Shown here: positions 2,471 through 31,741 of the stretch, piece by piece | How the letters are laid out: every line of letters starts with the position of its first letter | How positions within the stretch are numbered: the stretch's first letter is position 1 | Assembly (NCBI GenBank): GCA_965645245.1 | Contig: OZ287086.1 | Coordinates: forward strand, 1,054,001 to 1,118,000 | Length of the DNA stretch: 64,000 bases | Source: Massalongia carnosa | Taxonomy: Eukaryota | Direction of reading: 5' to 3' | Program-made: the position numbers and the translations under genes | The notes under the pieces: model-generated | The model's database searches: none | What the model saw: the letters and a program-made list of their open reading frames with translations, nothing else | Told to the model about the DNA's origin: nothing

Positions 2471-2560
2471 ATTCTAATTGCTCTCATACCCTACGGGTCA
2501 GCCAGCCCGTTTGGAGGAAGCTTAGCTAGTGGAGCCATCTGTTTTTGAACTCCGCAAACG

Positions 2561-8731: not shown

Positions 8732-8904
8732 TGTCAGGGTCCTGAGGTCACCTGACATCAGACTAGCATCGATTAGGTAATGTGCCGAGGAACCGACTTT
8801 TCAGGGGTTATATAGAACTCCGCCCGAGTAAAGCTTTTAGACTTCGTCTGAAGATTTTGGTGTAGAACTAGGCTATTGAAATTGAACTCGTTTTATCCCT
8901 CACA
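8732..8904 (+). repeat. 5' LTR of chromovirus
   Basis: Direct repeat of 14610-14782. Confidence 0.95.
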
Positions 8905-8949
8905 CAATCTTCAGACCTACAATCAGAATCATTAGGCTAATCAGAAAAC

Positions 8950-10542
8950 ATGAACTCATTAGAATCATCCAGCAGAGATGTCGCTCCCTCGGGGCCGGCC
9001 TTCAACACTAGAGCTCGCTCCATGTCGCGACAATCGACACAGAGCATACCAGGCGAATATGAACCCGCCGACGAAGAGGTGGGAAATGACACTGTTTTGC
9101 CGACAAACAAAGACAAAGGCAGGGAACCGAAGATCGAGGCCCCGACCTCAGAACCGAAAATCGACATAAGCAATTATGCCATTTATCGAAGTCTGACGGA
9201 AAGCAATCCGTCGAATTCAGCTATGATCATCAAGGTGGCCAATCGAGAAGAGTTGAGAAGGGCCCTCGTCCTAAAGGGAGACGGCGACATATGGTACACT
9301 GTTCTAGCCGGCACGCTCCTACAACATGAGGTCTTGATCGAGAAATATCAGGACTTGAAAAAAAGAAACAAAGATCTAAAAGGTCTACAGGCAGAATGGA
9401 CCCGAATGATAAAGAGCTGGGATCACGAGAGACTAGTATTTGAGGAGGATATCGCGGCTGAAAAATTGGAGACTCAGAAGGTCAAAGCGGAAAACTCGGA
9501 CCTCATTCGTGAAATATCAGAGATGAAACGTCTAGCTCGCGAAGCTACTCAGACGTCGACCTCATCGACTGGTCAAACTGAAGATCAATCCGCCGTCGCT
9601 GCCCCCTTAAGCAATTATCGACCCAAAGGCACCAACCCGAAGGAGGCCCTCGACGGTTCCAACTCAGACGCCTATAGTGCATGGGCGTTTACGGTGGAAA
9701 GAAAAATCAGAACCGACTCCCCAATGTACACTAGTGAGGAGTTGAAAATCGACTACGCCTTATCGCAGATGAAGGATCCCATTTTCGACGCCATACACAC
9801 CTGGGTAGTGGATGCCGGTCCCACTCTCTCTTTGAATACGTTCTTCAAGGAAATTGAGAGCTATCTCGGGATAGCATATTTGACAAAGGACGCGAAGAAG
9901 GAATTGAAAGAAATAAGCATGAACAAAGATGAAACGGTGACTGAATACTATCATCGAATGTTCAAACTCTGGCAACGTGCAAAAACCCCCGCGGATGAGA
10001 GAATTGAGACGTTCAAGGACACCCTGCGGCCGAACATCGCGCTGTCTCTATTGGGACGGGACTTCATCAGTCTAGAAACCCTCTTGCATGAAGCCAGGAA
10101 AATCGAACAGGGAAGAAAGGAGATGAATCAGAAGTACGCGAAGTCGGAATCTCAGAAGCCCGCGAAAACGACGACTTCTCCTTCTTCTTCCGTCGGTCGT
10201 GGTTTAAACAAAACCACGACCGCCACCTCCAGTACCTCGATCACAGTCAAACCAAAAGCGACTACGACCAACTCCGCCATCTCCGCCAACCCGAACTCGA
10301 AATTCGGACAGGTCTCGACCAGACCGGAAGGATGGGTAGGAGCTTGGTACGAGGGGACGCTTCACCCGCCCAAGTTGGAGGACGGGGAACGAGAGACTCT
10401 GTCACGACAGGGCCGATGTTGGTCGTGCAGAGGATCAGGGCATAGGGGCCGAGACCCCTGTTGCATTAGGCAAGCAGTGAATCTCAGTAGAGCCGCCATT
10501 CGAGAAGACTCATCCGAGTCCGAGGACTCGGAAAAAGAATGA
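8950..10542 (+). CDS. gag: Gag polyprotein
   Basis: 530-aa ORF directly after the LTR; ETVTEYY capsid-like motif; CWSCRGSGH..C zinc knuckle. Confidence 0.9.
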   Translation: MNSLESSSRDVAPSGPAFNTRARSMSRQSTQSIPGEYEPADEEVGNDTVLPTNKDKGREPKIEAPTSEPKIDISNYAIYRSLTESNPSNSAMIIKVANREELRRALVLKGDGDIWYTVLAGTLLQHEVLIEKYQDLKKRNKDLKGLQAEWTRMIKSWDHERLVFEEDIAAEKLETQKVKAENSDLIREISEMKRLAREATQTSTSSTGQTEDQSAVAAPLSNYRPKGTNPKEALDGSNSDAYSAWAFTVERKIRTDSPMYTSEELKIDYALSQMKDPIFDAIHTWVVDAGPTLSLNTFFKEIESYLGIAYLTKDAKKELKEISMNKDETVTEYYHRMFKLWQRAKTPADERIETFKDTLRPNIALSLLGRDFISLETLLHEARKIEQGRKEMNQKYAKSESQKPAKTTTSPSSSVGRGLNKTTTATSSTSITVKPKATTTNSAISANPNSKFGQVSTRPEGWVGAWYEGTLHPPKLEDGERETLSRQGRCWSCRGSGHRGRDPCCIRQAVNLSRAAIREDSSESEDSEKE

Positions 10543-13500
10543 TTCCTGATGATAGTCGCCATCAGGAATGTCGAGAAGTTTCATTAAGGGTTGTTAGAGC
10601 ATCTGTTATTTCTGTCGATCATCTCGTTCCGGGCAAGCATCTTTTATTTAGATGTAGTATAGCCTCTAATGAAAATCAGTTGATGATCGATAACGGAAGT
10701 GAAGCTCAATTTCTTCATGAATCCTTTGCGCGCAAAAGAAAACTAGAGACCATTAGACTAAAAAAAAGAGACAGGGTCAGACTGGAACTTGGGGATGGAA
10801 AAGTCCATCAAATCATTGATAAGGCCGTTATCGTTCCCGTCAGAATCGGAGATCATGAGGAAAAGTTATTCTGCTATCTGGCCGACATAGGTAATCATAC
10901 CTTGATCATCGGTGATGGATGGCTGCAGGAGCATAACCCTCACATTGATTGGGTTGAACGCACCATGACGTTCTCCAATCGGTGCGTCAGTAAGGGATGC
11001 GCACCTCGATCTCATTCAGTCTCAAAATTTGAATCCACAATCTTGGAGAAGGAAACGACTGCCTCAGCAAAGAACGAGGCCTTTGAAAATTTCGATATTC
11101 AGTCCCTCACCCCGAAGCGATTTATGAAACTTCTTCGAAGATCGGGTCATCAGACTTACTGTTTCTATCCGAGGGAAAAGCTCAACAAGAAGTTAGATAG
11201 GTACGAGAAGAAGCTTCTGACTGCTTCAAGTATCAACGCAGTCACCAGCGACGATCATGAGAAGTTCATGAAAGACAAAGTCGAATATACTCTGGAAGAA
11301 TTGAAAAAACGAGTACCCGAGGCCTATCATGGCGAGATTGAAGTCTTCATGAGGGCTAAGGCAGACGAGTTGGCACCTCATCGAAAAGAGGATCACGAAA
11401 TCAATTTGATGCCCGGGATCGAGCCCCCGTTCATCAAGAATTATCGGCCCATGTCCGAACAGGAATTGACCGCGGTAAGAAAATATCTAGATGAGCACTT
11501 AGCAAAAGGGTTTATTCGTCCGAGCTCGTCAAAGGCGGCCGCGCCGGTACTATTGGTCAGGAAACCAGGCGGGGGTCTTCGCTTTTGCGTAGATTATCGA
11601 GATCTGAATAATATCACGGAGAAAAGTCGATACCCCATTCCATTGATCAGCGAGACATTGGCGAAACTCGCCAAAGCAAAGTGGTTTACTAAATTGGACG
11701 TCATTCATGCATTCAATAGGATGAGGATTAAAGAGGGACAAGAGTGGCTCACGGCGTTCAATACTCGATACGGTCAATTTGAATATCTTGTGATGCCCTT
11801 CGGACTATGCAACGCTCCATCAACATTTCAGAGCTATATCAATAACTCCCTGCGAGAATACTTAGATTATTTCGTCACCGCCTATCTGGACGACGTACTG
11901 GTGTTCAGTGAAACAGAAACGGAGCACATCGAGCAGGTACTGAAGGTACTTCGTCGTCTGAAAGAAAGAGGACTTCAACTGGACATAGACAAGTGTGAAT
12001 TCTCTGTCTCCGAAGTCAAGTACCTCGGAATGTTCGTAGGGGTGAATGGCGTTAGAATGGACCCAGAAAAGGTGACGGCCATACTAGAATGGAAGACGCC
12101 CGCGTCAGTAAAAGAGGTGCAGTCCTTTCTTGGATTCGCTAACTTCTATCGTCGCTTCATTGAGCGATTCTCCGAAAAGGTGAAGTGTCTGACCGAGCTA
12201 ACCCGCGGAGAGCAATATGTCACGAAAGGCGGAAAGAGACGCACCAAGTATCAATACTTCGTGTGGACCACTGAATGTCAGCAAGCTTTCGAAGACATGA
12301 AGATTTCTTTTACCTCTGCGCCGATTCTTGCTCATTACGACCCAAGGCTAGAGACCTGGGTGGAGACAGACGCATCTGACTTCGTAGTATCGGGGATACT
12401 CTCTCAGATGCATGAAGGCGTTCTGAAACCCGTGGCTTATTTCTCGAAGAAGATGAGCCCCGCCGAATGCAATTATGAGATCTACGATAAAGAACTCCTA
12501 GCCATCGTAGAAAGTTTCGTCATCTGGAGACCGGAGCTAGCGGGGGTGGAGCAATCAACAAAGGTCTACTCAGATCATAAGAATCTGGAGACCTTCATGA
12601 CTTTGAAACAACTAAATCGCCGTCAAGTGCGTTGGGCTGAGATGCTGGCGGAATATAATTTTCGCATTATGTATAGACCAGGCAAGCAAGGGGGCAAACC
12701 GGACGCCCTCACCAGAAGAGAGCAAGATCTGCCGATGGACGCGGAGGATGATCGCACCAGATATCAATATCAGGTGCTGCTAAAAGAAAATCAGCTGGAC
12801 GATGAAGTGAAACAGGACCTGAAGCTGTACGTGACAACCAGATCCATGGCCAATCGAGAACGGGTTGAAGACAACATTACTACTGACTCATCCGATCAAA
12901 TCAGGGATGAGGAAGTAGAGGACTTGACGGTAGAGGAGTTCACAATCAATTCGAATGATGATTCGGATGCAGAAAAGCCTGATGAATTATTAGAAAATCT
13001 TTTAGCGGAGGCATATCAAGAAGACGCAATGATTCAGGAAGTCATGAAGGCTAAGTTGGAAAATCTGAAGAAATTGCCCGATAAAATTCTAAGCAACGGG
13101 CTGAGACTGGCGATGGGTGACTTGGAAGTCCGTCACGAAAGACTATACTACAAAACACGCCTCTTCATTCCGAATTTCGACAAGCTGAAGCTGCGTCTTT
13201 TATCGGATCATCATAATCCCCCGATGCAAGGACACCCCGGGTATCGAGGCATGTATGCCAAAATGCTGGAGAACTATTTCTGGATGTCCATGAAGGATGA
13301 TTGTCGAAGATACGCTACTAACTGCTCTACATGCCGAAGGTCCAAGGCGTACAACGATCAGAAACAGGGACTATTAGCCCCACTACCCATACCTCAAAGA
13401 AAATGGACAGACTTATCTCTGGACTTTGTAGTCAAACTGCCCAAATGTCACAGACGGGGCCGGACGTACGAAAATATCTTGGTTATCGTGGACAGATTGA

Positions 13501-14609
13501 CCAAACGTAGGTTGTACGAACCTATGGTGGATATAGGCACGAAGGACGTACTAGAAGTCCTCAAACGTCGGGTCTTTTCAACATACGGCTTGCCAAACTC
13601 CATCGTCCACGATCGCGGGACGCAATTGACAGCCCATCTGTGGAAGCGAATTTGTCAGCGATTAGGAGTCAAATCGAAACCGTCCTCCGCGCATCATCCA
13701 GAAACAGATGGTCAAACCGAAAATGCGAATAAGATTATGAAGAACTACCTGAGAGCATACGTCAGACATGCTCAAGACGACTGGGTGGACTACTTACCAG
13801 ATGCCGAATTTGCAGTCAATAATCATACGAACGCTTCAACCGGAATGTCCCCCTTCTTCGCTGATCACGGTTATCACCCTCGTAGTGGCTCGGAGCCGCC
13901 TCAGCCTTTTGACTCAAATGTCACCGGACGCGCGGAACTGATGTCGGCAGACAAAATAACCGCCCGACAAGAAGCCATGACCAAATGGCTTATCGAGCAC
14001 CTAACCTGGGCACAGGCAGATCAGATGAGATATGCCAATGAGTCGCGGGCCCCACATCCAGACTACAAGATAGGAGACATGGTATATGTCAACACCAAAG
14101 ATTTCTCCGTCGACAAGCAGAGTCGCTCTCTGAGTTCCAAAAACGCGGGGCCATGGAAAATCATCCGAAACATAGATAACAAGGCCTATGAATTGGAAAT
14201 TCCCGAACACTTGAAAAGAGTGGGGCTCACACCCATATTTCATCCATGGAAACTTCATCTGGCTCCTACGAACCCATTCCCCGGTCAACTTATTGAACCG
14301 GGTCCCCCGATACTGATTCAAGAAGACGCCGAATCCAGCCCTCATGAAGAATATGAAGTCCTCGAAATCGTCGACTGCCGTGAAACTAAGAAATACGGCA
14401 CTCAGTATAAAGCAACCTATATCGGCTCATGGGATGACTGGAACGCAAACCCACCTTGGCAGCCATGGACTGATTTCATTCGCGCCAAAGAAGAAATCAG
14501 AAAATTTCATACAGACAATAAAGGAAAACCCAACGCCCCAAAGGATGTCCTATTCATGAATAACAGTCAACCATCGACGTCCGGAGCCGCCGTCTCAGAG
14601 GAGGGGTAG
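10539..14609 (+). CDS. pol: Pol polyprotein: protease, RT, RNase H, integrase, chromodomain
   Basis: IDNGS protease; YLDD; ETDASD RNase H; HHCC zinc finger and DDE integrase; GPW motif; EYEVLEIVD chromodomain-like C-terminus. Confidence 0.95.
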   Translation: MIPDDSRHQECREVSLRVVRASVISVDHLVPGKHLLFRCSIASNENQLMIDNGSEAQFLHESFARKRKLETIRLKKRDRVRLELGDGKVHQIIDKAVIVPVRIGDHEEKLFCYLADIGNHTLIIGDGWLQEHNPHIDWVERTMTFSNRCVSKGCAPRSHSVSKFESTILEKETTASAKNEAFENFDIQSLTPKRFMKLLRRSGHQTYCFYPREKLNKKLDRYEKKLLTASSINAVTSDDHEKFMKDKVEYTLEELKKRVPEAYHGEIEVFMRAKADELAPHRKEDHEINLMPGIEPPFIKNYRPMSEQELTAVRKYLDEHLAKGFIRPSSSKAAAPVLLVRKPGGGLRFCVDYRDLNNITEKSRYPIPLISETLAKLAKAKWFTKLDVIHAFNRMRIKEGQEWLTAFNTRYGQFEYLVMPFGLCNAPSTFQSYINNSLREYLDYFVTAYLDDVLVFSETETEHIEQVLKVLRRLKERGLQLDIDKCEFSVSEVKYLGMFVGVNGVRMDPEKVTAILEWKTPASVKEVQSFLGFANFYRRFIERFSEKVKCLTELTRGEQYVTKGGKRRTKYQYFVWTTECQQAFEDMKISFTSAPILAHYDPRLETWVETDASDFVVSGILSQMHEGVLKPVAYFSKKMSPAECNYEIYDKELLAIVESFVIWRPELAGVEQSTKVYSDHKNLETFMTLKQLNRRQVRWAEMLAEYNFRIMYRPGKQGGKPDALTRREQDLPMDAEDDRTRYQYQVLLKENQLDDEVKQDLKLYVTTRSMANRERVEDNITTDSSDQIRDEEVEDLTVEEFTINSNDDSDAEKPDELLENLLAEAYQEDAMIQEVMKAKLENLKKLPDKILSNGLRLAMGDLEVRHERLYYKTRLFIPNFDKLKLRLLSDHHNPPMQGHPGYRGMYAKMLENYFWMSMKDDCRRYATNCSTCRRSKAYNDQKQGLLAPLPIPQRKWTDLSLDFVVKLPKCHRRGRTYENILVIVDRLTKRRLYEPMVDIGTKDVLEVLKRRVFSTYGLPNSIVHDRGTQLTAHLWKRICQRLGVKSKPSSAHHPETDGQTENANKIMKNYLRAYVRHAQDDWVDYLPDAEFAVNNHTNASTGMSPFFADHGYHPRSGSEPPQPFDSNVTGRAELMSADKITARQEAMTKWLIEHLTWAQADQMRYANESRAPHPDYKIGDMVYVNTKDFSVDKQSRSLSSKNAGPWKIIRNIDNKAYELEIPEHLKRVGLTPIFHPWKLHLAPTNPFPGQLIEPGPPILIQEDAESSPHEEYEVLEIVDCRETKKYGTQYKATYIGSWDDWNANPPWQPWTDFIRAKEEIRKFHTDNKGKPNAPKDVLFMNNSQPSTSGAAVSEEG

Positions 14610-14782
14610 TGTCAGGGTCCTGAGGTCACCTGACATCAGACTAGCATCGATTAGGTAATGTGCCGAGGAACCGACTTTTCAGGGGTTATATAGAACTCCG
14701 CCCGAGTAAAGCTTTTAGACTTCGTCTGAAGATTTTGGTGTAGAACTAGGCTATTGAAATTGAACTCGTTTTATCCCTCACA
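14610..14782 (+). repeat. 3' LTR of chromovirus
   Basis: Direct repeat of 8732-8904. Confidence 0.95.
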
Positions 14783-15229: not shown

Positions 15230-16871
15230 ACACGAGTGCGACCCCACCGATCGGCGGCATATTGAAGAGTCGGAGGATCAACCGGCTGAGCCTCTCCCCA
15301 ATGTATTTTATGAATAAGCTGCAGCATGTTAAAGCGAAGATGCCATAACCCTAATCCCGGTAAAATCCAGTCGAACCGATCGAAAGATTGCTCCTATATC
15401 CCACGACGTAATTCCTTGACAGATTGCATTCTCGACCATGTCTTGAGGTCACCATAGATAAGCCGAATGACGCTCGCAAACGTCGAGTCATCCTCCTTGA
15501 ACTTGAACTGTCGCACAAATATATCCTCCAATATTTGAATATTATTAGATGTTGTGCTCTCATCCTTCATGACTGGTTTGATAGGAATGTAATTGGTCTT
15601 GTATTTTTTCATCTTATTCAGCACGGGTATTGCAGTCGACCAGGGAAAATGAACGTCGCCGATCTCTGGGCCATAAAGCGCTCGAATCGCTGACTCTAGA
15701 TGATGAAGACGAATCTAGGTGCGCGGTGCATTAGCGGTTGAGCGCGGTATATACATCTCGTCCTGTATTGAACTCACCTGCATCTCGAGATCACCAGTCT
15801 CCAGCTTTCGCGCGATTCTTTCAGCTGATAAAAGATGCGTGGCGGGGCGCCACATATCCTGCCTCAAAGCGCCGGCATCGAATCCTTACCACTGAAAAAT
15901 TATAGCGGTAGTGATTGATCTGACGTCTCTATTATCCCCCGTGCACTCTCCTCGTTTACCTTCTGCGAAGTCAAAGTTATCGTATGTCAAGATCATGTTT
16001 GAGCCTTGTCCTAGCATCTGAACCTTTCGTTCGGCCTCCTTAATCAAGGATAACATGCGCCGCTGCAGGGTAGTATATGACATCGTCAGGTCAAAATGAC
16101 AGTGTGTATCTAGAACTCGCCGCCTCGCCCCACCTTGATAAATATAAAGGCCTAAGACGGACTGAATATTAGTCGCCTTATTAGGTCGCAATTTGTGACA
16201 AAGCATTGCCAATATAATGGTGTGCCGGCCGCTGGGAGAATCCAACGTCACATCGAGAGGTTCCTGCGGGCGAGCCTCGCGACAAACACCATCAATTAGC
16301 TCAAGCCATCGTGGCGCCAACTACTTGGCGGCAGATGCAGCAAGTTTAATAGCCTCCAAGGTCCCAAACTCGACTGTCGCAGAGGGCGGCTGGAAAGGGC
16401 CAAAGGCTGCGTGATCTGCCAAACTTTGATTTCTTCACGAAGCGCATCCGCGGCCCAAACCAATCCTCTCTCGCGAAGGATAGTGGATATTCTACCAGGC
16501 CCAATGAGGCTTGAAAAGTCTTCTTGCCGCACAATATCGACATAGACAAAATCGAAGAGCTGGCCTTGCGCCTTTCGCATACTATGACGGGCTCGATTCT
16601 TACAAAGTGTTGATAAAAAATCTTTTACCGACCAATTTAGATAGCTCAGAAATTTAAGCACCTCAACCAGCTTGTCGTAATCTGATATGCGCCGGCGGTG
16701 GCGTTTCGCGCCTCCATTTTTTTCAGGTAAGGCAGGAGGGGAGGAGGAAGAGGGTGAGCTATCATTACTGCCTGACGGCGATGGGTGGGGCCGCTTGAGC
16801 GCACCGGCGGGAGTCAAGGGACTTGTCCGTAGGTCGGTAAGTGGCGAGGAGGGGCCCCGGACAAGAGCCAT
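15230..16871 (-). pseudogene. Duplicated 5' part of Academ-like transposase (lacks the Copia insertion)
   Basis: Same YDNFD, IYGDLKT and WHLRFNML motifs and the same frameshifts as the copy starting at 20260; truncated at 15230. Confidence 0.8.
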
Positions 16872-17429
16872 GGCCTTCGTCAGATAGCTTCAATCTAGAT
16901 AAATCATACAATATCATTGATTGGCCGTCATTATTCATATCATCATGATCTTTGTAACTCAATGTAATCGCGATACATGAAAATAATCAGTTCATCAACC
17001 TCAAAATTGAGCGAAAGCGAGCAATTTATCACTTAATCGACTCTCACATCGCTTTTTATAGCCTGATAGTGGTTATAACACATGATTATCGAGTCATCCA
17101 TCTTGAGAGGTGCGTTTTTGTATAAAATACAGTCTCTGGTAAACTAATACGACGCTAAGCATTGTATTAAATCCATAAAAGGAAAGGTTGCACTGCTAAA
17201 ATTTTTATTACGCGGATCTGGCCGTAATTTGAGTTTTGCGCTCAGACGTGCTATCGTACTGACGTTAGTCAGCAGCAACGCTAACCCGGAGGGGCTTAGC
17301 CGGCTCATAGAGCCACGCATGTCTGGGCAACCGGAAGGCAGTCAAAGTAAATTGATTACTAAGCAATTAACAATAATAAACAAAGGCATGTCTGTTCAAG
17401 TACTGAACAACACAACGGTTTCACCAAAT

Positions 17430-18179
17430 ATGGCTCGACGTGTATCGGATCTTGAACGCAAGTTACGCGACGCAGAGCAACGAGCCCAGGAGGCGGAAGA
17501 GGAGAAGCAGAAGGCGGAAGAGGACAAGCAGAAGGCGGAAGAGGACAAGCAGAAGGCGGAAGAGGACAAGCAGAAGGCGGAAGAGGACAAGCAGAAGGCG
17601 GAAGAGGACAAGCAGAAGGCGGAAGAGGACAAGCAGAAGGCGGAAGAGGACAGGCAGAAGGCGGAAGAGGACAGGCAGAAGGCGGAAGAGGACAAGCAGA
17701 AGGCGGAAGAGGACAGGCAGAAGGCGGAAGAGGACAGGCAGAAGGCGGAAGAGGACAGGCAGAAGGCGGAAGAGGACAGGCAGAAGGCGGAAGAGGACAG
17801 GCAGAAGGCGGAAGAGGACAGGCAGAAGGCGGAAGAGGACAGGCAGAAGGCGGAAGAGGACAGGCAGAAGGCGGAAGAGGAAACCCAAGAAGAGCGGCAG
17901 CGCAAGCAGAAAAAAACCTTTGAAGAATTTCTACAGGCTTGCCACGAACATCTTCATAAACCATTACGCGTCGAGACCGATAAAAGTTTGACGACTAAAG
18001 GCCTTACCAATCCTGCGAAGAAATACTTCCCGAAAACGTTGAGTCCGTGGAATGGGTTTTCTGAAAAACAGGAAGAGATATTTTCGAGAGTCTCTAAAAT
18101 CTTTCATCCGTCAAAGCAATCTTTCCTACGACTCTTGAGCCCAGTCCTTAGCATCGAAGATTTTCCCGAAAACCCATGA
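17430..18179 (+). pseudogene. Truncated Spok-like protein, short copy (18 heptad repeats)
   Basis: [12 protein letters not shown]..(AEEDKQK-type)x18..[26 protein letters not shown]; cut at the fold-back junction. Alternative ATG at 17388. Confidence 0.7.
17493..17870 (+). repeat. 21-bp coding tandem repeat, 18 units (gcggaagaggaca[a/g]gcagaag)
   Basis: Counted from the sequence and translation. Confidence 0.95.
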
Positions 18180-19701
18180 GATTGCCGATAGAGAGCTTGT
18201 GGGGCGGTTTGTACTCAGCAACGAATAGTAACTCACGTATGCCCCCTACATTCTTATAAATAAAGTACTGGTCGGCACGACTTCGTACCGCCTCGGAATA
18301 GGAGCCAGAGTCAGGCTGAGATAGATTAGGTGGGGTTCGTGGTGGTTGTATCTGCAGGCGCTCTTGAACCTCGTATGCCACATCGCTGAGGGAGTTGGGG
18401 TCGTTCTCAAAAACAATCCCTTGTCCTAGCTTGAACTTTTCTGGATCTTGTTCGTTAATTAGATTTGGATCATGCTTCATCTCACATAGACGATTGATGG
18501 TGTCTGTCACTCGAACCTCTACCGCATTCTTTTCATAGTTTCGGAGACTTGCTTCGTTGGCGAGTCTTACATTGCAGTGGAGTCGACCTTGATCTTCGAT
18601 GCTAAGGACTGGGCTCAAGAGTCGTAGGAAAGATTGCTTTGACGGATGAAAGATTTTAGAGACTCTCGAAAATATCTCTTCCTGTTTTTCAGAAAACCCA
18701 TTCCACGGACTCAACGTTTTCGGGAAGTATTTCTTCGCAGGATTGGTAAGGCCTTTAGTCGTCAAACTTTTATCGGTCTCGACGCGTAATGGTTTATGAA
18801 GATGTTCGTGGCAAGCCTGTAGAAATTCTTCAAAGGTTTTTTTCTGCTTGCGCTGCCGCTCTTCTTGGGTTTCCTCTTCCGCCTTCTGCCTGTCCTCTTC
18901 CGCCTTCTGCCTGTCCTCTTCCGCCTTCTGCCTGTCCTCTTCCGCCTTCTGCCTGTCCTCTTCCGCCTTCTGCCTGTCCTCTTCCGCCTTCTGCCTGTCC
19001 TCTTCCGCCTTCTGCCTGTCCTCTTCCGCCTTCTGCTTGTCCTCTTCCGCCTTCTGCTTGTCCTCTTCCGCCTTCTGCTTGTCCTCTTCCGCCTTCTGCT
19101 TGTCCTCTTCCGCCTTCTGCTTGTCCTCTTCCGCCTTCTGCTTCTCCTCTTCCGCCTTCTGCTTGTCCTCTTCCGCCTTCTGCTTGTCCTCTTCCGCCTT
19201 CTGCTTGTCCTCTTCCGCCTTCTGCCTGTCCTCTTCCGCCTTCTGCCTGTCCTCTTCCGCCTTCTGCTTGTCCTCTTCCGCCTTCTGCTTGTCCTCTTCC
19301 GCCTTCTGCCTGTCCTCTTCCGCCTTCTGCCTGTCCTCTTCCGCCTTCTGCTTGTCCTCTTCCGCCTTCTGCTTCTCCTCTTCCGCCTTCTGCTTGTCCT
19401 CTTCCGCCTTCTGCCTGTCCTCTTCCGCCTTCTGCTTGTCCTCTTCCGCCTTCTGCCTGTCCTCTTCCGCCTTCTGCCTGTCCTCTTCCGCCTTCTGCTT
19501 GTCCTCTTCCGCCTTCTGCTTGTCCTCTTCCGCCTTCTGCTTGTCCTCTTCCGCCTTCTGCTTGTCCTCTTCCGCCTTCTGCTTGTCCTCTTCCGCCTTC
19601 TGCTTGTCCTCTTCCGCCTTCTGCTTCTCCTCTTCCGCCTCCTGGGCTCGTTGCTCTGCGTCGCGTAACTTGCGTTCAAGATCCGATACACGTCGAGCCA
19701 T
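18148..19701 (-). pseudogene. Truncated Spok-like protein, long copy (36 heptad repeats, PD-(D/E)xK region, no kinase domain)
   Basis: Coiled-coil repeat, then [39 protein letters not shown]...EYKPPHKL. Motif order matches Podospora Spok proteins as I recall them. The ORF runs into the opposite arm and stops. Confidence 0.75.
18883..19638 (-). repeat. 21-bp coding tandem repeat, 36 units
   Basis: The arm offset of 378 bp equals 18 extra units relative to the left copy. Confidence 0.95.
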
Positions 19702-22029
19702 ATTTGGTGAAACCGTTGTGTTGTTCAGTACTTGAACAGACATGCCTTTGTTTATTATTGTTAATTGCTTAGTAATCAATTTACTTTGACTGCCTTCCGG
19801 TTGCCCAGACATGCGTGGCTCTATGAGCCGGCTAAGCCCCTCCGGGTTAGCGTTGCTGCTGACTAACGTCAGTACGATAGCACGTCTGAGCGCAAAACTC
19901 AAATTACGGCCAGATCCGCGTAATAAAAATTTTAGCAGTGCAACCTTTCCTTTTATGGATTTAATACAATGCTTAGCGTCGTATTAGTTTACCAGAGACT
20001 GTATTTTATACAAAAACGCACCTCTCAAGATGGATGACTCGATAATCATGTGTTATAACCACTATCAGGCTATAAAAAGCGATGTGAGAGTCGATTAAGT
20101 GATAAATTGCTCGCTTTCGCTCAATTTTGAGGTTGATGAACTGATTATTTTCATGTATCGCGATTACATTGAGTTACAAAGATCATGATGATATGAATAA
20201 TGACGGCCAATCAATGATATTGTATGATTTATCTAGATTGAAGCTATCTGACGAAGGCCATGGCTCTTGTCCGGGGCCCCTCCTCGCCACTTACCGACCT
20301 ACGGACAAGTCCCTTGACTCCCGCCGGTGCGCTCAAGCGGCCCCACCCATCGCCGTCAGGCAGTAATGATAGCTCACCCTCTTCCTCCTCCCCTCCTGCC
20401 TTACCTGAAAAAAATGGAGGCGCGAAACGCCACCGCCGGCGCATATCAGATTACGACAAGCTGGTTGAGGTGCTTAAATTTCTGAGCTATCTAAATTGGT
20501 CGGTAAAAGATTTTTTATCAACACTTTGTAAGAATCGAGCCCGTCATAGTATGCGAAAGGCGCAAGGCCAGCTCTTCGATTTTGTCTATGTCGATATTGT
20601 GCGGCAAGAAGACTTTTCAAGCCTCATTGGGCCTGGTAGAATATCCACTATCCTTCGCGAGAGAGGATTGGTTTGGGCCGCGGATGCGCTTCGTGAAGAA
20701 ATCAAAGTTTGGCAGATCACGCAGCCTTTGGCCCTTTCCAGCCGCCCTCTGCGACAGTCGAGTTTGGGACCTTGGAGGCTATTAAACTTGCTGCATCTGC
20801 CGCCAAGTAGTTGGCGCCACGATGGCTTGAGCTAATTGATGGTGTTTGTCGCGAGGCTCGCCCGCAGGAACCTCTCGATGTGACGTTGGATTCTCCCAGC
20901 GGCCGGCACACCATTATATTGGCAATGCTTTGTCACAAATTGCGACCTAATAAGGCGACTAATATTCAGTCCGTCTTAGGCCTTTATATTTATCAAGGTG
21001 GGGCGAGGCGGCGAGTTCTAGATACACACTGTCATTTTGACCTGACGATGTCATATACTACCCTGCAGCGGCGCATGTTATCCTTGATTAAGGAGGCCGA
21101 ACGAAAGGTTCAGATGCTAGGACAAGGCTCAAACATGATCTTGACATACGATAACTTTGACTTCGCAGAAGGTAAACGAGGAGAGTGCACGGGGGATAAT
21201 AGAGACGTCAGATCAATCACTACCGCTATAATTTTTCAGTGGTAAGGATTCGATGCCGGCGCTTTGAGGCAGGATATGTGGCGCCCCGCCACGCATCTTT
21301 TATCAGCTGAAAGAATCGCGCGAAAGCTGGAGACTGGTGATCTCGAGATGCAGGTGAGTTCAATACAGGACGAGATGTATATACCGCGCTCAACCGCTAA
21401 TGCACCGCGCACCTAGATTCGTCTTCATCATCTAGAGTCAGCGATTCGAGCGCTTTATGGCCCAGAGATCGGCGACGTTCATTTTCCCTGGTCGACTGCA
21501 ATGCCCGTGCTGAATAAGATGAAAAAATACAAGACCAATTACATTCCTATCAAACCAGTCATGAAGGATGAGAGCACAACATCTAATAATATTCAAATAT
21601 TGGAGGATATTGTTGGATACCAACCTATGGCGCTAGACATTATTATGGTCACGTGTAACAGTAGACCTATTCCGGTATGCGGCACGCATCCTGGACTAGG
21701 AGGATTTCAGACCTTAGAAGTAGAGTCATAGAATCATTAATATAACAACAATGAATAACCTCATACTTCTACAGGTTATGAGCCCGGCCAGCGCATAAGC
21801 TCATTAATCTTCGCTAGCGACAGGCCACAAATACCCCACACCCCCCAGAGCAAAGCACCTAGAACGAAGAACTTCCTACCCGAAAAGGAGGAATGGTGTG
21901 AGGCGGGAGGGTTAAGACCACTTGGCTACCAAAAGGAGCCAATTCTGAAATGGCGGTGTGGAATCAAGCCAATGCGCCTGACCACCTACCACAATAGATA
22001 GGAAGAGTGCTACGCCCACGTACTGAAAG

Positions 22030-22545
22030 GATACGAAGTAGAACGCTCATATACCAAAGGCTACGAGGCAAACGCTCACATACCAGACGGCTACGAGGCG
22101 AAGACGCTCATACGAAGCAGAACGCTCACATACCGAAGGCTACGAGGCGGAGAACTTGCTCATATACCAAAGGTTACGAAGCGAAGACGCTCACATACCA
22201 GACGGCTACGAGGCGAAGACGCTCATACGAAGCAGAACGCTCACATACCGAAGGCTACGAGGCGGAGAACTTGCTCATATACCAAAGGTTACGAAGCGAA
22301 GATGCTCACATACCAGACGGCTACGAGGCGAAGACGCTCATACGAAGCAGAACGCTCACATACCGAAGGCTACGAGGCGGAGAACTTGCTCATATACCAA
22401 AGGTTACGAAGCGAAGACGCTCACATACCAGACGGCTACGAGGCGAAGACGCTCATACGAAGCAGAACGCTCACATACCGAAGGCTACGAGGCGGAGAAC
22501 TTGCTCATATACCAAAGGTTACGAAGCGAAGACGCTCGCATACCA
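22030..22545 (+). repeat. 115-bp tandem repeat (~4 units, with shorter subrepeats) in Copia 5' leader
   Basis: gcagaacgctcacatacc recurs at 22117, 22232, 22347 and 22462. Confidence 0.9.
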
Positions 22546-22617
22546 CAACAGCTACAAGGCAACCCACCTTCCTACAACCCAAAGGCGTTGAGAACTCTTC
22601 GCCCAAAAAACCACAAA

Positions 22618-23574
22618 ATGTCAGACCGACGAGAAGAGCAGGAGAAGGCTCCCCGCATCATTCTCCAAGGCTCCGAGAACTATACATTATGGCGATCCTA
22701 CATTCTGGGAGAGCTCAAGCAGAAGAACTGCGCCTGGGCAGTCACCGGAAAGCCAGAGCCAACGAAGGAGTCCGTCAGATCGGACATCATAGCCATGGGC
22801 TTCAAACCCACCGAAATGACGGCCCAAGCACTCTGGACTGCCCTCTCCACCGAAATTAAAGAGCACCGAGCCTCCCTGAGCAAAGCGGAGGGCATCATCA
22901 AAAACTCCGTAGCCTCCAAACACCAAGCAGCTATCGAGGGCAAAGAAGCCAAGGAAATGTGGGAAAGCCTACAAACGAAATTTCAGCACATCTCTCCAAT
23001 GAGCATCTCGCGACTCATCCTGGAGACCACCAAATTACGACTATCGGACTGCACAGACATTCACGAATATTGCAGCAAATACCAAGAGGCCTACGACACT
23101 GTGTGCGGCCTCATTCCCACAGATTCCGAGATCCCCGCAAAAGGAGCCGAGGTACTCCTGCAGGCAGGACTGCTCACTGGGATGGGAAACGAATACTCGG
23201 GGATCGTCTCTATGATGGAGACAGAGTGGAAAATGGGGAACACAAACATCGCCGAGAGCACTAAAAAGCTTATCCGGTTTGCAGAAATCAGGAAAGAGAA
23301 CGACCAAACTCCAGGACATTCCGGCACACCCAAACAATCGGCACTCTTCACCTCCAAACCACCAAAGCCTAGTAATCGAGCACCCCCGGGGACCTGCACA
23401 AACTCAGATTGCATCAAGAAGGGAAATACACAGCACTACACAGACCGTTGTTTCCTGAGATACCCCGAACTTCGGCCAAAACACTCGCTGCATCAGATGA
23501 GAACAAAAGGCTCTAGGCAAAACCTCCAAAGCCAGACAGAGAGCCCTTCCGAGACCCCGTCCCGCGAAAGTTGA
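22618..23574 (+). CDS. gag: Copia Gag
   Basis: First ATG after the repeat array (MSDRREEQ); LQGSENYTLW and AKEMWESL Copia gag motifs; CTNSDC..H...C knuckle-like motif. Confidence 0.85.
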   Translation: MSDRREEQEKAPRIILQGSENYTLWRSYILGELKQKNCAWAVTGKPEPTKESVRSDIIAMGFKPTEMTAQALWTALSTEIKEHRASLSKAEGIIKNSVASKHQAAIEGKEAKEMWESLQTKFQHISPMSISRLILETTKLRLSDCTDIHEYCSKYQEAYDTVCGLIPTDSEIPAKGAEVLLQAGLLTGMGNEYSGIVSMMETEWKMGNTNIAESTKKLIRFAEIRKENDQTPGHSGTPKQSALFTSKPPKPSNRAPPGTCTNSDCIKKGNTQHYTDRCFLRYPELRPKHSLHQMRTKGSRQNLQSQTESPSETPSRES

Positions 23575-26500
23575 CAACCAAAGGTGCTAGCGGTCAAAGG
23601 GCCGAGAGACGCTTCCTGGCTGGTTGACAGCGCGGCGGACGTGCACGTGTGCAATGATCGAAGCTTGATGACTGAGTACCACGAAAAGCCTACCCGGATC
23701 GGAGGCTCAACTGCAGATGGGGTTTCACCAGGCCGTGGAAAGGTGCGCCTTCGCCTCAGCCTGAAAGACGGTCGCGAAGGAGTGATCCTGAACCTGAACA
23801 ACGTGTTTTTCCTTCCCCACAGTCCTTCTAATCTTGTCAGCCTCGGCCTTCTTAACATTCATGGAATTTTCTATGATAATGAGAACGAGACACTCTATGA
23901 TAGAAGAACAAAGGAAACCCTGGCTTACGCCGAAAGGTGGAGGACCAGCTTCCTTCTTCACCCTCTCAACCTCTCTGTCTCTGCAACTCATCTAAAGCAG
24001 ATCGACGCCAACACGTACGAGTGGCCACCACACGCCTACAGGACCACCACCTCATCAAAACTACCTCTCACCACCTGGCACAAACGACTCGGCCACCTCA
24101 ACTTCCCCTCACTGAAGCAACATCTCCACAAACTGGAGATCGACTACTTGGACGACTCAGAAAAGTACGTGTGTGACAGCTGCCAACGTGCGAAAGCCAC
24201 AAAAATCTACAACCGCCACGAGCCTCAGAAACGAGCAAGCGAGTCGTACCAGTTTATACACACAGACCTAGTAGGTCCCATCAACCCTGTTGGTTTTGGA
24301 GGGGAGAGATACTTCTTCACATTTACGGATGACTTCACGCGATATACCGAAGTGCACACTGGTGCCCGGAAAAGCGATTGGTTCAAATGTCTTAAGACCT
24401 TCTACAACCTCTGCAAAACCAGGTCACACAAGGAGAGACCAGTCGAACGCCTACGTTCAGATTATGGATCAGAACTGCAAAGCAAAAGGGTAGAGGAATG
24501 GTTTGCGAAGAAGGGCATCACTTTTGAACCCTCAGCACCGTACTCTCAGGAACAAAACGGCGTGTCAGAACGAATGGGAAGAACCATCATGGATATGACA
24601 AGAGCGACAATCCTAGAGGGAAGCCTTGATGACGAGCTGTGGCCTGAAATTGTTCTTGCGATGACGTACGTCAAAAATGTTCGTCCCACGAAGGCTTTAG
24701 GTGGAGACAACCCCTACCATGCACAGCAGAAAATCCACCCAGATATCCAACACCTCCGAGTGTTAGGCTCGACAGTGTACGTTCTCCTACACGAAGAGGA
24801 ACGAGCCTTAAAGTCTGAGAAGTGGAACCCACGAGCCTTACGCGGTATTCTTGTTGGATACGATGGTCATACAATCTACAGAGTCCACATCCGAGAACAG
24901 AACAAAGTCATTCGCATCAAAGATCTCAGAATCTTTGAAGACTACGAGGCCAAGACGTCCACCGAGCTTCCTGAATACAAAAACACTCCCACCTTCTCAG
25001 GTTTCTTACTCTCCGATGACGATGACGAGGCGACGAGCGACACACAGATGTTGGATGTAGGCCGAAAGTTCAACAATGCAACAGGTGCCAGCGAGTCAAC
25101 TCCCAGTAAAGTAACCCCTAGGAAGGGCCGAAAGGTCACTACTAGAGATGAAACTACTGGAGCGTCAAATGAAACTACGGAGACAAGGAAGTCTCGGTCT
25201 GGCCGAACGATAAGGCCTACACAAAAGGCTCAAGATCAAGATCTGATAGTACATCTCAGCAAGCTGCTAGACCTTGACTGGGAACACAGCTCGGAGGAAA
25301 AAGCAAACGCGTTCCTGACAAACATCGAATGCGAGGAGGACGGCCATGACGCAGACGACGACCCATACACAATCTTGACTTCGAGGCTCATTCAGGCCAA
25401 CGCCCAAAGTAAAGGAGACTACGTCCTTGCCACCCAATTAGATGTCGAAGAACCTGAGTCATACAACAGGGCAATGCAATGCCCCCACGCCTCGCAGTGG
25501 GCACAGGCAATGAAAGAAGAAATAGACTCTCTACACGAAAACAAGACCTGGGTTCTCATACCAAAGAACGAGATGGAGTCAGGTCATCGACCTCTGGGGG
25601 GGAAGTGGGTGTACAAGGTCAAGCGTGATGTCGAAGGCAAAGTATCTAGATTCAAAGCCAGATGGGTTATCAAAGGGTACCTACAACAGTTTGGTGTTGA
25701 TTTCGATCAAACCTACGCATCCGTGGTGAAGCCAATGGCCTTCAGAACCCTGTTCGCCCTTGCCGCCTTCTTCGACCTGGACATCGACCAGATGGACGTA
25801 AAAACGGCTTTTCTCTATGGCCTCATTGATCAACTGATATATATGGAGATTCCAAAGGGAACTGAGACAGAAGCCACAAAGAATATGGTTTGCAAACTGT
25901 TGAAAGCTATCTACGGCCTCAAACAATCTCCTCGCCTCTGGTACGAACGCTTTTCAGCCTTCCTCCTCGAGAAAGTAGGCTTGAAACGCATCCACGCAGA
26001 CCACAGTATATTCGTATCGGGTGCAGGGCTGAAAGGTCCCGTACTCAGCGTCTTCGTAGATGACATCAAGATTATGGCGCCAAAGGACAGTGGGATAATC
26101 AAGCGAGTCAAAGCAGAACTCACAGCTGCATTCTCTATGTCAGATATGGGTCCCATCAGCTTTTACCTAGGACTGAGAATAGATCGGGATCGAAAGCAAC
26201 GAACCATCAAACTGTCTCAACCGGCCTACATCGAAAAAGTGTTGGAGAGATTCCATCTCGACAAAGCCAACCCCGTCAACACCCCGATGAAAGAATCTGT
26301 GCCACTCTCCCAACGCGAGGAAGGAGAAGCCTCACCACCAGAGAAGGAGAGATACCAAGGAATGACGGGGTCCATAATGTTCTCCATGGTAGAGACCAGA
26401 CCAGATATTGCCTTCGCCACGTCCCTCGTAAGTCCCTTTGCCAAGAACCCGAGCCATCAGCACACCGAAGCAGTCAAAACCATCCTCAAATACCTCAAGG

Positions 26501-27105
26501 GCTCGAAACATCGAGGCATAACCTATGGGGGGGATGAAGAACTGAAAATCGAAGGCTATTCGGACTCGGATTGGGCAGGTGACAAGGACAGCCGGAAGTC
26601 AACATCCGGTTTCATCTTTATGCTGAACGGGGGACCGATAAGCTGGTGCTCTAAAAGGCAATTAACAGTTGCTCTCTCTTCCACAGAAGCGGAATACATC
26701 GCACTCACGCTGGCCGCCAAAGAAGCCACCTGGCTTCGTCTACTCCTCACAGAGCTTGGGGTGTTGGAAGCGGACCAACAGCATGCTGAGATCAAGGTCT
26801 CCAACAAGAACTCGTGCGTACAAGCGATCGACAGAGACCTCAACAGCCTCAAGCCCAGCGACGGAGACCCCACTGTTTCACTCAAAGGTGACAACCAAGG
26901 ATCTCTTGCTCTGGCACACAACCCAGTATTCCATGCCAGGACCAAACACATCGATATCCAGCACCATTACATCCGAGACGAGGTGGAGGCAAAGAGAATC
27001 GAGTTGACCTACGTGCCAACTGGGGAGATGATCGCCGACGGCCTGACGAAGGCCCTAACGCACGCAAAGTTCCACACCTTTGTCGAACAGATGCAGATGA
27101 CCTAG
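23575..27105 (+). CDS. pol: Copia Pol (protease, integrase, RT, RNase H), in frame with gag
   Basis: WLVDSAA protease; WHKRLGH..CDSC; HTDL..SDYGSE..NGVSER integrase; QMDVKTAFL and FVDD RT; YSDSDWAG..TKHIDI RNase H. Confidence 0.95.
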   Translation, partial: QPKVLAVKGPRDASWLVDSAADVHVCNDRSLMTEYHEKPTRIGGSTADGVSPGRGKVRLRLSLKDGREGVILNLNNVFFLPHSPSNLVSLGLLNIHGIFYDNENETLYDRRTKETLAYAERWRTSFLLHPLNLSVSATHLKQIDANTYEWPPHAYRTTTSSKLPLTTWHKRLGHLNFPSLKQHLHKLEIDYLDDSEKYVCDSCQRAKATKIYNRHEPQKRASESYQFIHTDLVGPINPVGFGGERYFFTFTDDFTRYTEVHTGARKSDWFKCLKTFYNLCKTRSHKERPVERLRSDYGSELQSKRVEEWFAKKGITFEPSAPYSQEQNGVSERMGRTIMDMTRATILEGSLDDELWPEIVLAMTYVKNVRPTKALGGDNPYHAQQKIHPDIQHLRVLGSTVYVLLHEEERALKSEKWNPRALRGILVGYDGHTIYRVHIREQNKVIRIKDLRIFEDYEAKTSTELPEYKNTPTFSGFLLSDDDDEATSDTQMLDVGRKFNNATGASESTPSKVTPRKGRKVTTRDETTGASNETTETRKSRSGRTIRPTQKAQDQDLIVHLSKLLDLDWEHSSEEKANAFLTNIECEEDGHDADDDPYTILTSRLIQANAQSKGDYVLATQLDVEEPESYNRAMQCPHASQWAQAMKEEIDSLHENKTWVLIPKNEMESGHRPLGGKWVYKVKRDVEGKVSRFKARWVIKGYLQQFGVDFDQTYASVVKPMAFRTLFALAAFFDLDIDQMDVKTAFLYGLIDQLIYMEIPKGTETEATKNMVCKLLKAIYGLKQSPRLWYERFSAFLLEKVGLKRIHADHSIFVSGAGLKGPVLSVFVDDIKIMAPKDSGIIKRVKAELTAAFSMSDMGPISFYLGLRIDRDRKQRTIKLSQPAYIEKVLERFHLDKANPVNTPMKESVPLSQREEGEASPPEKERYQGMTGSIMFSMVETRPDIAFATSLVSPFAKNPSHQHTEAVKTILKYLKGSKHRGITYGGDEELKIEGYSDSDWAGDKDSRKSTSGFIFMLNGGPISWCSKRQLTVALSSTEAEYIALTLAAKEATWLRLLLTELGVLEADQQHAEIKVSNKNSCVQAIDRDLNSLKPSDGDPTVSLKGDNQGSLALAHNPVFHARTKHIDIQHHYIRDEVEAKRIELTYVPTGEMIADGLTKALTHAKFHTFVEQMQMT

Positions 27106-28788
27106 AGCCAAATCAGCACAGCCACACTACCTGGAGCCACAACCTACCAATGAACCGATGCAACCAACAGCTGCTGATTCTTCCAGAAAAAACGAGATAA
27201 AAATCGATTCGTTAGCGTGGGCGATTCTTACGTAACTAGCGCATAGCTTGTGGGGGGGTGTTGGATACCAACCTATGGCGCTAGACATTATTATGGTCAC
27301 GTGTAACAGTAGACCTATTCCGGTATGCGGCACGCATCCTGGACTAGGAGGATTTCAGACCTTAGAAGTAGAGTCATAGAATCATTAATATAACAACAAT
27401 GAATAACCTCATACTTCTACAGATATATTTGTGCGACAGTTCAAGTTCAAGGAGGATGACTCGACGTTTGCGAGCGTCATTCGGCTTATCTATGGTGACC
27501 TCAAGACATGGTCGAGAATGCAATCTGTCAAGGAATTACGTCGTGGGATATAGGAGCAATCTTTCGATCGGTTCGACTGGATTTTACCGGGATTAGGGTT
27601 ATGGCATCTTCGCTTTAACATGCTGCAGCTTATTCATAAAATACATTGGGGAGAGGCTCAGCCGGTTGATCCTTCGACTCTTCAATATGCCGCCGATCGG
27701 TGGGGTCGCGCTCGTGTCGTGCAGCCGAACGATTTCCAGGCCTTAGAGGATCTGATCATTCAGAGCTATCAAGCTAGAATCGTTGGGACGTGGATTAGGT
27801 TTTTACGAAAGGATGGATATGCTCCGCAGCGAACCGAAGCAACTATTTCGTGGCTCATAGCGCAGACTTGCGGGCAGGATGGCACTTGGATGAATATGTT
27901 GGGCAGGATATCTAGCAAACTTCACGCGGAATTACCCTCAACGTCAATAGATATGCTTCCTCCAACGCTTGATCAACAATTTCAGAATCATCAGAACTTC
28001 TGTGATCACGTTGAATCGTATCTAACACTTCGATACGCAATCAAATATGCGGATATTGGACTACTTCGTCACGCATTGCGCCACGCAACGGTGATCTTTC
28101 AGGCAAGCGTAGCTGGCACCCCGAAATATGCGCAAGCTCTTCTATACACCCTTCATGCGATTGATTCTTCCGCAGCGACTATAAGGCTACAGGAAAGTAT
28201 TTTAATGAATAGTCTTGTCAATTTACGCGGTGACGAAGAGTCGAGTTTTGAGACCGATCGGCTTTTAGAGTTACTAAACAATAACCTCAAGACGTTCCAA
28301 CACGAGCGATCTTATTTTTCAAATGGGCACTCAACGGTCCATATCTTATGAAGCTCAAAGAAATCGTTGAGTTTTACTTTGGAAGAGTCAACTCTTCAAG
28401 GCATCCAGCAAAATCGGCCGCGGAGGATGTGTGGGGCATGGCTACGGCACTAGCACATAAATCACTCTGTAAAAGAAGCTATGATCGATTTTCAACTAAT
28501 CCAACAGCTAATCTTTATGTTGAGGGATGGAAGAATCTTGGAGAAAATGTATTAAAATACAATCAGTAGTATCTTTCCGAAGAAATTTTAAAAGAAATTT
28601 CAACAGACGACCTTGAGGGTAAGTATGAAGCCGAGCCCGATTTTGTCAATGAAACAAAGCAGGTCCCCGACAGCCCTGTCATTTCAATGGCCCGTCTCGA
28701 GATATCCGGCGGTATGTTTTTTTGATTAAATCATCGATACCACGAGATAGCCTAGTCATGTACATCCGCGCCGCGCGGCTTTACAGAG

Positions 28789-31193: not shown

Positions 31194-31741
31194 TTAGATG
31201 TGTTCGCGAGCGATATTCGACGATTCGCGAGTTGGATTCTTAGCCCGCAAAACGCAAATCAAGCAAGTTCATCACATTCAACGATTTTAGGCTTTCGAAA
31301 ACAACGCTCGGAGGATCAGATTAATGATTAGAAGCGCCGACAATGAAAAACTAGAGCTAGTGACCCGTTGAGTCTGCTGTGGTGGTGTCGAAATTTCGAG
31401 TCAAAGTCGAGTCCTCGTCGCGAGATCGATATTGCGACTCAATTCTGCATCGATATGTAATTAAAATATTGATTAATCGATAGAATGTATATCAAAACAT
31501 CATTTCTATTACTATATAATTTATGAAATGTCGTTGTGCGTTATTGATTCCGCCGTCAACTTGATTCTTGATAATTTTTTAGGTTAAGCCAAAAATTTGT
31601 ATGAGCGCGCACTAATATAAGCCGGATCTGACAAAAATATAGAGTTTTGCGCTCAGAAGTGCCGCCCGTAGCATGCGTAGTCAGCTAAAGGGCCGCTAAC
31701 CCGAAGGGGCTTAGCCGGCTCATAGAGCCACGCACGTCTGA

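Follow-up and report, generated by a model that had tools for sequence, protein, structure and literature searches.

The window analysed here is a stretch of 64,000 nucleotides (64 kb) from the genome assembly of Massalongia carnosa (GCA_965645245.1, contig OZ287086.1, positions 1,054,001 to 1,118,000 of the forward strand), and all coordinates given below refer to it. The host is an ascomycete, and the closest relatives of the gene under study are found in lichen-forming fungi. This gene is a homologue of the Spok genes, the best-understood single-gene toxin-antidote drivers in fungi. Its 5′ part is present twice, in inverted copies that lie tail to tail around 430 bp of DNA (18162-18591). 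An initial annotation, made from the letters of the window, had described this arrangement and suggested two explanations: a hairpin-RNA locus that suppresses meiotic drive by silencing intact Spok genes, or a neutral breakage scar.

Anatomy of the inverted duplication

The tail-to-tail arrangement of the two 5′ gene parts around 18162-18591 was recovered by both a repeat search and self-BLAST of the window. The repeat search returned two inverted pairs, one of 675 nt (I2, 17487-18161 and 18592-19266) and one of 2396 nt (I1, 15516-17911 and 19220-21615), each with 99% identity. The duplicated region extends far past the limits of 17388-19743 that had been proposed initially, with arms of about 2.9 kb. 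The left arm (15230-18161) is an uninterrupted stretch of 2932 bp, which self-BLAST and global alignment identify as the reverse complement of 18592-21610 and 27423-27717. The right arm is split into an inner part (18592-21610) and an outer part (27423-27717) by the insertion of a Copia-type retrotransposon; across the outer part, self-BLAST aligns 15230-15525 with 27717-27422 at 99.3% identity. The arms were aligned globally by a script after removal of the retrotransposon; 33 of the 36 mismatch rows of this alignment fall outside the arms, and a 4-nt gap at 15518 is an artefact of excising the target duplication. Arm differs from arm by three substitutions (15237, 15273, and 15628, all of them transitions) and by one 378-bp indel in a 21-bp tandem array, and the figure of 99% from the repeat search results from register shifts within this array. 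The length and identity of the arms exclude a chance origin, and three substitutions in 2.9 kb mark the duplication as recent. Because the retrotransposon is found in one arm with a target duplication, and the left arm is uninterrupted at the same site, the arms must be separate DNA and the duplication must be older than the insertion.

The tandem array encodes heptad units of the type EED(K/R)QKA. The left array (17487-17881, plus strand) holds 18.8 copies of the 21-bp repeat, corresponding to 19 heptad units, and the right array (18872-19644, minus strand) holds 36.8 copies, corresponding to 37 units. The first 11 and the last 8 units are identical in both arrays and the difference consists of one block of 18 units; thus, a single event accounts for 19 versus 37 units.

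At the inner joint (18161/18162), the right copy is broken off and fused to the end of the left arm, as seen in the sequence of the window and in contigs of public sequencing runs. No letter is shared on the readable side of this joint that could indicate microhomology; on the other side, such a reading would require the ancestral sequence that has been lost. The single-copy stretch between the arms (18162-18591, minus strand) had been taken for a spacer. Its length of 430 bp and its position are as described, but it is no foreign loop: in it, the coding sequence of the right, minus-strand copy runs on for another 143 codons, which include the motif RADQ...EYKPPHK (D...ExK). The outer break of the duplication lies at 15230 in the left arm and at 27717 in the right arm. 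Position 27717 falls within a DUF6589 gene that extends further rightward, which identifies the left arm as the copy of an original on the right side. Unrelated DNA abuts the outer end of the left arm at 15229/15230.

The inner joint is also found outside the assembly. Contigs of four public runs (X1, X2, X4, and X6), whose cover bears on the structure and not on expression, were compared with 17930-18790, and the joint is bridged in all three runs that have any cover of this region, X6 having none. The X1 contig spans 17930-18267, with 232 letters to the left and 106 to the right of the joint; the X4 contig spans 18100-18582 (62 letters left, 421 right), and the X2 contig 18132-18621 (30 left, 460 right), where the left overlap is one letter below the bridging rule used. 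None of the three has a mismatch. These runs come from three studies and carry three organism codes, and X1 is possibly the source of the window itself. No contig of X1, X2, or X4 diverges at 18162, as would be expected from a near-identical unbroken copy, although this is a weak point, given that contigs drop rare variants. Contigs of X2 and X4 do diverge at other points, namely at 18606 (in both runs, with a 2-nt deletion at 18658), 18624, 18709, 18088, and 18602. Furthermore, the ratio of arm to centre depth in X2 and X4 is about 3:1 and 2.4:1, compared to 2:1 for the arrangement of the window. The additional break points and the depth above 2:1 imply at least one further, differently broken copy in those samples. 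The X1 contig ends at 18267 in 21 letters unlike the window, which we take to be the reverse complement of a commercial primer for cDNA or low-input amplification, i.e., a library adaptor.

Family and remains of the broken gene

Each arm carries a truncated Spok-like open reading frame (ORF). The right ORF (18148-19812, minus strand) encodes 554 amino acids from ATG to stop, comprising a coiled coil, domain 1, the beginning of the nuclease domain (~36 residues), and four foreign codons; the frame measures 611 amino acids from stop to stop, and the 584 amino acids reported initially correspond to neither count. The left ORF (17319-18179, plus strand) encodes 286 amino acids from the first ATG, comprising the coiled coil, part of domain 1, and six foreign codons before the stop, and its true start is likely the Met at 17430. 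No Pfam family was found in either ORF with a local copy of Pfam that lacks PF27653, apart from sub-threshold, low-complexity matches such as MAP7.

The assignment of the parent gene to the Spok family is supported by homology. A query of 227 non-repetitive residues from the window retrieved 27 longer proteins (517-947 amino acids, best identity 69%) from a collection of 5.8 billion proteins, and PF27653, named SPOK2_N in the protein atlas, is annotated in every one of them. Named homologues among the 27 are found in the lichen-forming genera Lepraria and Xylographa, and also in Nemania. A profile (A1), built from 15 of the 27 homologues together with the window ORF, matches 437 proteins at E ≤ 1e-5 among 8000 candidates. 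These include FOXG_12586, FOXG_12536, and FOXG_17087 of Fusarium oxysporum (E about 1e-220), all three of which carry the entry “Reference Spok: yes” in PMC12693581 (Supplementary Table 2). The profile also matches a protein of Polytolypa hystricis, which is described as a close relative of the Podospora Spoks by Vogan et al. 2019 (PMC6660238). In BLASTP comparisons, the 227 window residues share 32% identity with both the Polytolypa homologue (E 1e-29) and FOXG_12586 (E 2e-26). The initial placement of the gene in the Spok family is thereby borne out, with the link running via Fusarium and Polytolypa relatives rather than via a direct comparison with Podospora. Spok homologues are assigned to InterPro entry IPR052396, as named in PMC12693581.

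Sequence features of the copies and of their relatives point to the same family. According to PMC6660238, SPOK3 has a heptad-encoded coiled coil, a D...ExK motif, a QxxxY motif, a cysteine cluster of the form C-x3-C-x13-C-x5-H, and a kinase, and all of these are carried by the full-length homologues of the window gene, with QxxxY represented by QTFHY (residues 344-348 of the homologue P0001) and the cysteine cluster by the invariant residues C547, C551, C565, and H571 (P0001 numbering). The N-terminal coiled coil of variable repeat length is present in the window copies with 19 and 37 heptad units, where it was deduced from the heptads themselves and not by a predictor; the homologue P0006 has a similar heptad run. 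In the right copy, the distance between D and K of RADQ...EYKPPHK is 21 residues, as is the case at the level of this motif for the D-to-K interval 219-240 of SPOK3, in which K240 is the lysine needed for killing (PMC6660238). E, Y, and K are invariant in alignments of 16 and of 60 sequences, and the PD-(D/E)XK motif is absent from the left copy. For the closest full-length homologue, P0001 (789 amino acids), the AlphaFold model has a mean predicted local distance difference test score (pLDDT) of 79.7, and its C-terminal part (residues ~550-780) matches kinases, Rio2 among them (Foldseek E 7e-6; VIA Z 12.4 to 9.4); the profile matches kinases in the Protein Data Bank (PDB) as well. The structure matches listed for P0001 are kinases only, and the nuclease assignment of the family is made at the level of motifs.

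How much of the gene is left was determined by tblastn and by a 774-position profile. With P0001 as query, tblastn aligns residues 57-282 to the right copy (68.8% identity, E 2e-102) and residues 40-141 to the left copy, and the profile finds positions 15-272 in the right copy (E 4.2e-85) and 14-143 in the left copy (E 3.1e-33). Positions 273-774 of the profile were not found anywhere in the window (best E 0.96), and tblastn likewise found nothing further. The coding sequence of the right copy ends 15 residues past the ExK lysine, followed by four codons of antisense left arm and a stop, and the left copy ends inside domain 1. Mapped onto the model of P0001, the right copy retains the strands with D...ExK (247-266) and is cut off ahead of the helix with QxxxY (317-351) and strands 356-383. 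By both methods, the window has no complete nuclease domain with QxxxY, i.e., no counterpart of QTFHY or of the strands that follow it, no cysteine cluster of the C-x3-C-x13-C-x5-H type, and no C-terminal kinase, the antidote part, in either copy. The initial statement that both copies lack their natural 3′ end is thus correct. The lost 3′ half was also sought next to the left arm and past the Gypsy element described below; there is no match in either place, and both locations were rejected.

For Podospora Spok3, residues 1-490 are reported to suffice for killing, and an allele with a stop at E282 to have lost toxicity (PMC6660238). If this numbering can be transferred, the longer fragment in the window would be shorter than this harmless allele. 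Neither of the truncated proteins should be able to kill or to protect. The window copies are remnants of a Spok-family gene, not working members of the family.

Neighbouring genes and transposons

The Spok-like gene and the DUF6589 gene diverge from an intergenic stretch of 447 bp (19813-20259), which is duplicated at 16872-17318 in the left arm. It is presumed to be a shared promoter region. The 5′ part of the DUF6589 gene follows at 20260-21610 (plus strand), and the same ORFs are present at 15886-16871 (minus strand) in the left arm; two of them, of 191 and 106 amino acids, are identical in both arms. The ORF at 21417-21608 matches positions 34-89 of the DUF6589 profile (E 0.005, short of the cut-off), and the gene continues on the other side of the retrotransposon at 27554-28351 (plus strand; PF20231, profile positions 131-376, E 2.5e-41). 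As the outer break of the duplication at 27717 lies inside this gene, the left DUF6589 copy is truncated, too.

The window is rich in transposons throughout. The Copia-type long terminal repeat (LTR) retrotransposon that splits the right arm (21611-27421, plus strand) contains gag_2, RVT_2, and rve domains and has TG...CA ends, 164-bp LTRs with 100% identity, and a 5-bp target duplication (GATAT). It is young and apparently intact, with about five copies of a 115-bp tandem repeat (21959-22648) between the 5′ LTR and gag. A Gypsy-type LTR retrotransposon (8732-14782, plus strand), separated from the left arm by 447 bp of unrelated DNA, has 173-bp LTRs with 100% identity and a target duplication of TAGCA, and looks like a very recent insertion. 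It, too, appears intact: besides a gag frame, it has a single frame of 1372 codons with gag, protease, reverse transcriptase, RNase H, and integrase, as well as an SH3-like domain. A second, truncated Gypsy-like element (2549-5361) has gag, protease, and reverse transcriptase only, and a 236-bp stretch at its end (5324-5559) is repeated 28 kb away at 33416-33651 with 94% identity. A LINE-like element with Exo_endo_phos_2 and RVT_1 frames lies at 59519-62062 (plus strand).

Other features of the window include fragments of DEAD and Helicase_C domains in at least three frames (29141-31193, minus strand), beside a fragment of a DDE_3 transposase (31907-32401); this region (29141-33009, minus strand) looks like decayed genes of mobile elements. 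The remnant of a DUF3723 gene extends over two frames at 37407-38493 (profile positions 180-326 and 349-507). In a part of the window less ridden with repeats, a DUF7924 frame and a frame with an IBR domain, resembling an RBR-type E3 ligase, are found at 45210-46280 and 49166-50380, respectively (both plus strand). Finally, a HET-domain frame of 622 codons (53989-56436, minus strand) is followed by an open stretch of 192 codons in the same frame, and both may belong to a longer gene that is interrupted by a stop.

Dinucleotide ratios were determined in eight stretches and range from 0.59 to 0.85 for TpA/ApT and from 1.04 to 1.32 for (CpA+TpG)/(ApC+GpT). By the usual thresholds, these values count as absence of repeat-induced point mutation (RIP). 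RIP as a signal for dating or defence was consequently rejected, the eight stretches having no such bias and the three transitions between the arms being too few to type. With two identical LTR pairs and a near-identical 2.9-kb duplicate in the window, the genome seems to tolerate fresh repeats.

Origin of the locus and competing explanations

Of the two explanations offered initially, the neutral breakage scar fits the evidence best: a recent inverted duplication probably wrecked a Spok-family toxin-antidote gene and left behind a rearrangement scar with a pseudogene, a locus that would have no evolved function. We infer the following order of events. In the ancestral layout, a minus-strand Spok-like gene would have diverged from a plus-strand DUF6589 gene. 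A DNA break in the Spok-like coding sequence at 18162 could then have been healed by fusion to an inverted copy of the 2.9 kb next to it, with 430 bp remaining unduplicated. Along with this copy would have come the presumed promoter region and the 5′ parts of both genes. A second joint, at 15229/15230, would have connected this copy to unrelated DNA. Later, one arm may have gained or lost 18 heptad units, and the Copia element would have inserted into the right arm. About 65% of the coding sequence was lost in the event: the kinase, the cysteine cluster, and the larger part of the nuclease domain. If the duplicated promoters still fire, they would produce convergent, self-complementary transcripts, which would be diced given RNA interference (RNAi), as a by-product and not as a purpose.

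Several observations weigh against a mere scar. The sequence of the joint is identical across runs of three organism codes and three studies, which implies that the arrangement persisted or spread, as a neutral scar need not. Both arms have kept their frames open up to the break, as well as the whole upstream region, so that expression is possible. An intact paralogue may exist elsewhere in the genome, the searches having covered the window, the protein collection, and the contigs of three runs. Moreover, the youth of the locus is no argument against a function, because the hairpin suppressors of Drosophila are described as likewise young and likewise derived from partial duplicates of drivers (10.1101/2021.08.05.454923).

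In the hypothesis of a suppressor, transcripts that start in one arm or the other and continue across the centre into antisense sequence would form a long duplex, to be processed by Dicer into small interfering RNAs (siRNAs). Intact Spok paralogues would be silenced by these in trans and spore killing would be suppressed, similar to Nmy and Tmy. The window does contain a long and nearly perfect inverted repeat that stems from a driver-family gene, each arm retains the full upstream region, and the joint is common to three runs. For an RNA covering 17319-19812, folding predicts 843 base pairs between the arms, with perfect helices of 436 and 407 bp and -1950 kcal/mol, in line with the initial estimate that more than 700 bp of double-stranded RNA could form. 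In Neurospora, RIP is argued to preclude silencing based on duplications (PMC8092558), an objection that falls away here, since there is no RIP signature and near-identical duplicates are tolerated, as indicated by LTR pairs with 100% identity. In addition, RNAi is reported to be capable of suppressing a fungal spore killer through MSUD, the meiotic silencing by unpaired DNA (PMC8092558). However, the window holds no intact Spok copy according to tblastn and the profile, and the best full-length protein in the collection of 5.8 billion shares 69% identity, the best of similar length 66%, which is too diverged for targeting by siRNAs. The lack of contigs that diverge at 18162 in X1, X2, and X4 speaks against an intact target as well, weakly, for the reason given above, and transcription, dicing, and RNAi machinery are all assumptions of this hypothesis. 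A protein-guided scan of metagenomes gave 250 pattern matches and no relative, an exact 23-nt word from the single-copy centre had no metagenome match, and the literature searches returned no report of a Spok-derived hairpin locus, with much noise from “Spok” at the start of a word also matching “spoke.” We consider it unlikely that the locus works as a trans-silencer in the manner proposed. That it is an evolved hairpin-RNA gene born from a Spok-family killer, with siRNAs that silence related Spok copies (among them perhaps further copies, broken or intact, that other samples hint at), appears a little more doubtful again.

It is similarly improbable that the arrangement belongs to some repeated or mobile unit, such as decayed Starship cargo, which has been copied and broken again several times. 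This would account for the further break points in X2 and X4 (18606 in both) and for arm to centre depths of about 3:1 and 2.4:1 instead of 2:1. The window also includes the DUF3723 remnant, DUF3723 being an auxiliary gene family of Starships (PMC11162782), and Spok homologues are described as frequent Starship cargo (PMC12693581, PMC12941216). Yet a Pfam scan of 56 different frames of the window detected no tyrosine-recombinase captain (DUF3435), there are just two copies within the window, and the outer right end lies inside a gene that continues at 27718-28351, which is the mark of a duplication break and not of an element terminus. A decoy function, in which the greatly lengthened coiled coil of a truncated protein (19 or 37 heptads) pairs with a full-length Spok in a dominant-negative manner, is very unlikely. 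Both ORFs are open from the ATG to the joint, and window residues in the invariant columns of profile A1 are all kept up to the break, with the caveat that the window sequence is itself a row of A1; but open frames are to be expected anyway after the time needed for three substitutions, the kinase domain that Spok resistance requires is missing from both copies, and no partner was found in the protein collection, where the best identities are 69 and 66%. An artefact of assembly or library, i.e., an inverted chimera from amplification or from a fold-back long read, is nearly excluded. Near-perfect inverted repeats with a short centre are a classic form of chimeric reads, and the sole X1 contig over the joint ends in what is presumably amplification-primer sequence. 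Nevertheless, the joint recurs in X4 and X2, from other studies and under other organism codes, and one arm is set apart from the other by a Copia insertion with its target duplication, an 18-unit block, and three substitutions, which is impossible for the two strands of one molecule.

The favoured origin, a Spok-family gene broken by inverted duplication, combines two known kinds of structure, namely a Spok homologue or pseudogene and a fold-back duplication. Fold-back inverted duplications whose single-copy centre is asymmetric have inverted arms, a short unique centre, and a loss of the sequence distal to the break. The locus resembles this class in its two inverted arms, the 430-bp single-copy centre, and the distal loss; it differs in that the left arm is only 2.9 kb long, a second joint at 15229/15230 is needed, and there is no microhomology on the readable side of the inner joint. 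With Spok1-4 of Podospora, the window gene shares the coiled coil of variable repeat number, domain 1, and D...ExK with its spacing of 21 residues, and its full-length relatives add QxxxY, the cysteine cluster, and the C-terminal kinase. Unlike those genes, the window copies end at positions corresponding to residues 282 and 141 of a 789-amino-acid homologue and lack most of the killing domain and the whole resistance domain, and as far as killing or drive is concerned, the homologues of this lineage are known from sequence alone. A decayed Spok in repeat-rich DNA with transposon insertions nearby is described for P. anserina as SpokPsi1 (PMC6660238). SpokPsi1 lacks the 5′ end, retains the resistance part, and has many stops according to that description, whereas the present locus keeps the 5′ part twice, in inverted orientation and with no internal stops.

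In Drosophila simulans, Nmy and Tmy, which act against the Dox family, are described as young, near-perfect inverted repeats that arose from a partial copy of a driver-family gene (10.1101/2021.08.05.454923; PMC12941216), as in the window. There, siRNAs, targets, and genetic suppression have been demonstrated, whereas for the window locus the DNA is what can be compared. A further difference is that Nmy originated elsewhere, at a separate locus, through retroposition; in the window, the parent gene itself was destroyed in place. MSUD against Sk-1 in Neurospora sitophila is another example of RNAi directed at a fungal spore killer, in which the trigger is described as unpaired meiotic DNA rather than a dedicated hairpin locus, and the killer gene, Spk-1, is unrelated (PMC8092558).

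How hosts disarm Spok genes is largely unknown, and in print we found a single case of a fungal spore killer suppressed by RNAi, that of MSUD in Neurospora (PMC8092558). For Lecanoromycetes, a whole-word literature search returned no paper on Spok genes. The locus documents one concrete route by which a Spok-family gene can die, through breakage and inverted duplication, and the resulting structure is, on paper, an ideal source of double-stranded RNA in a RIP-free genome. Should small RNAs and a target come to light, the principle of the Drosophila hairpin suppressors would be extended to fungi, and the locus would be the first dedicated hairpin-RNA suppressor of a toxin-antidote driver in this group, made feasible by the RIP-free tolerance of duplicates. 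Otherwise, it would provide a dated case of Spok pseudogenisation from among the relatives of lichen-forming fungi, a lineage in which this family has hardly been described.

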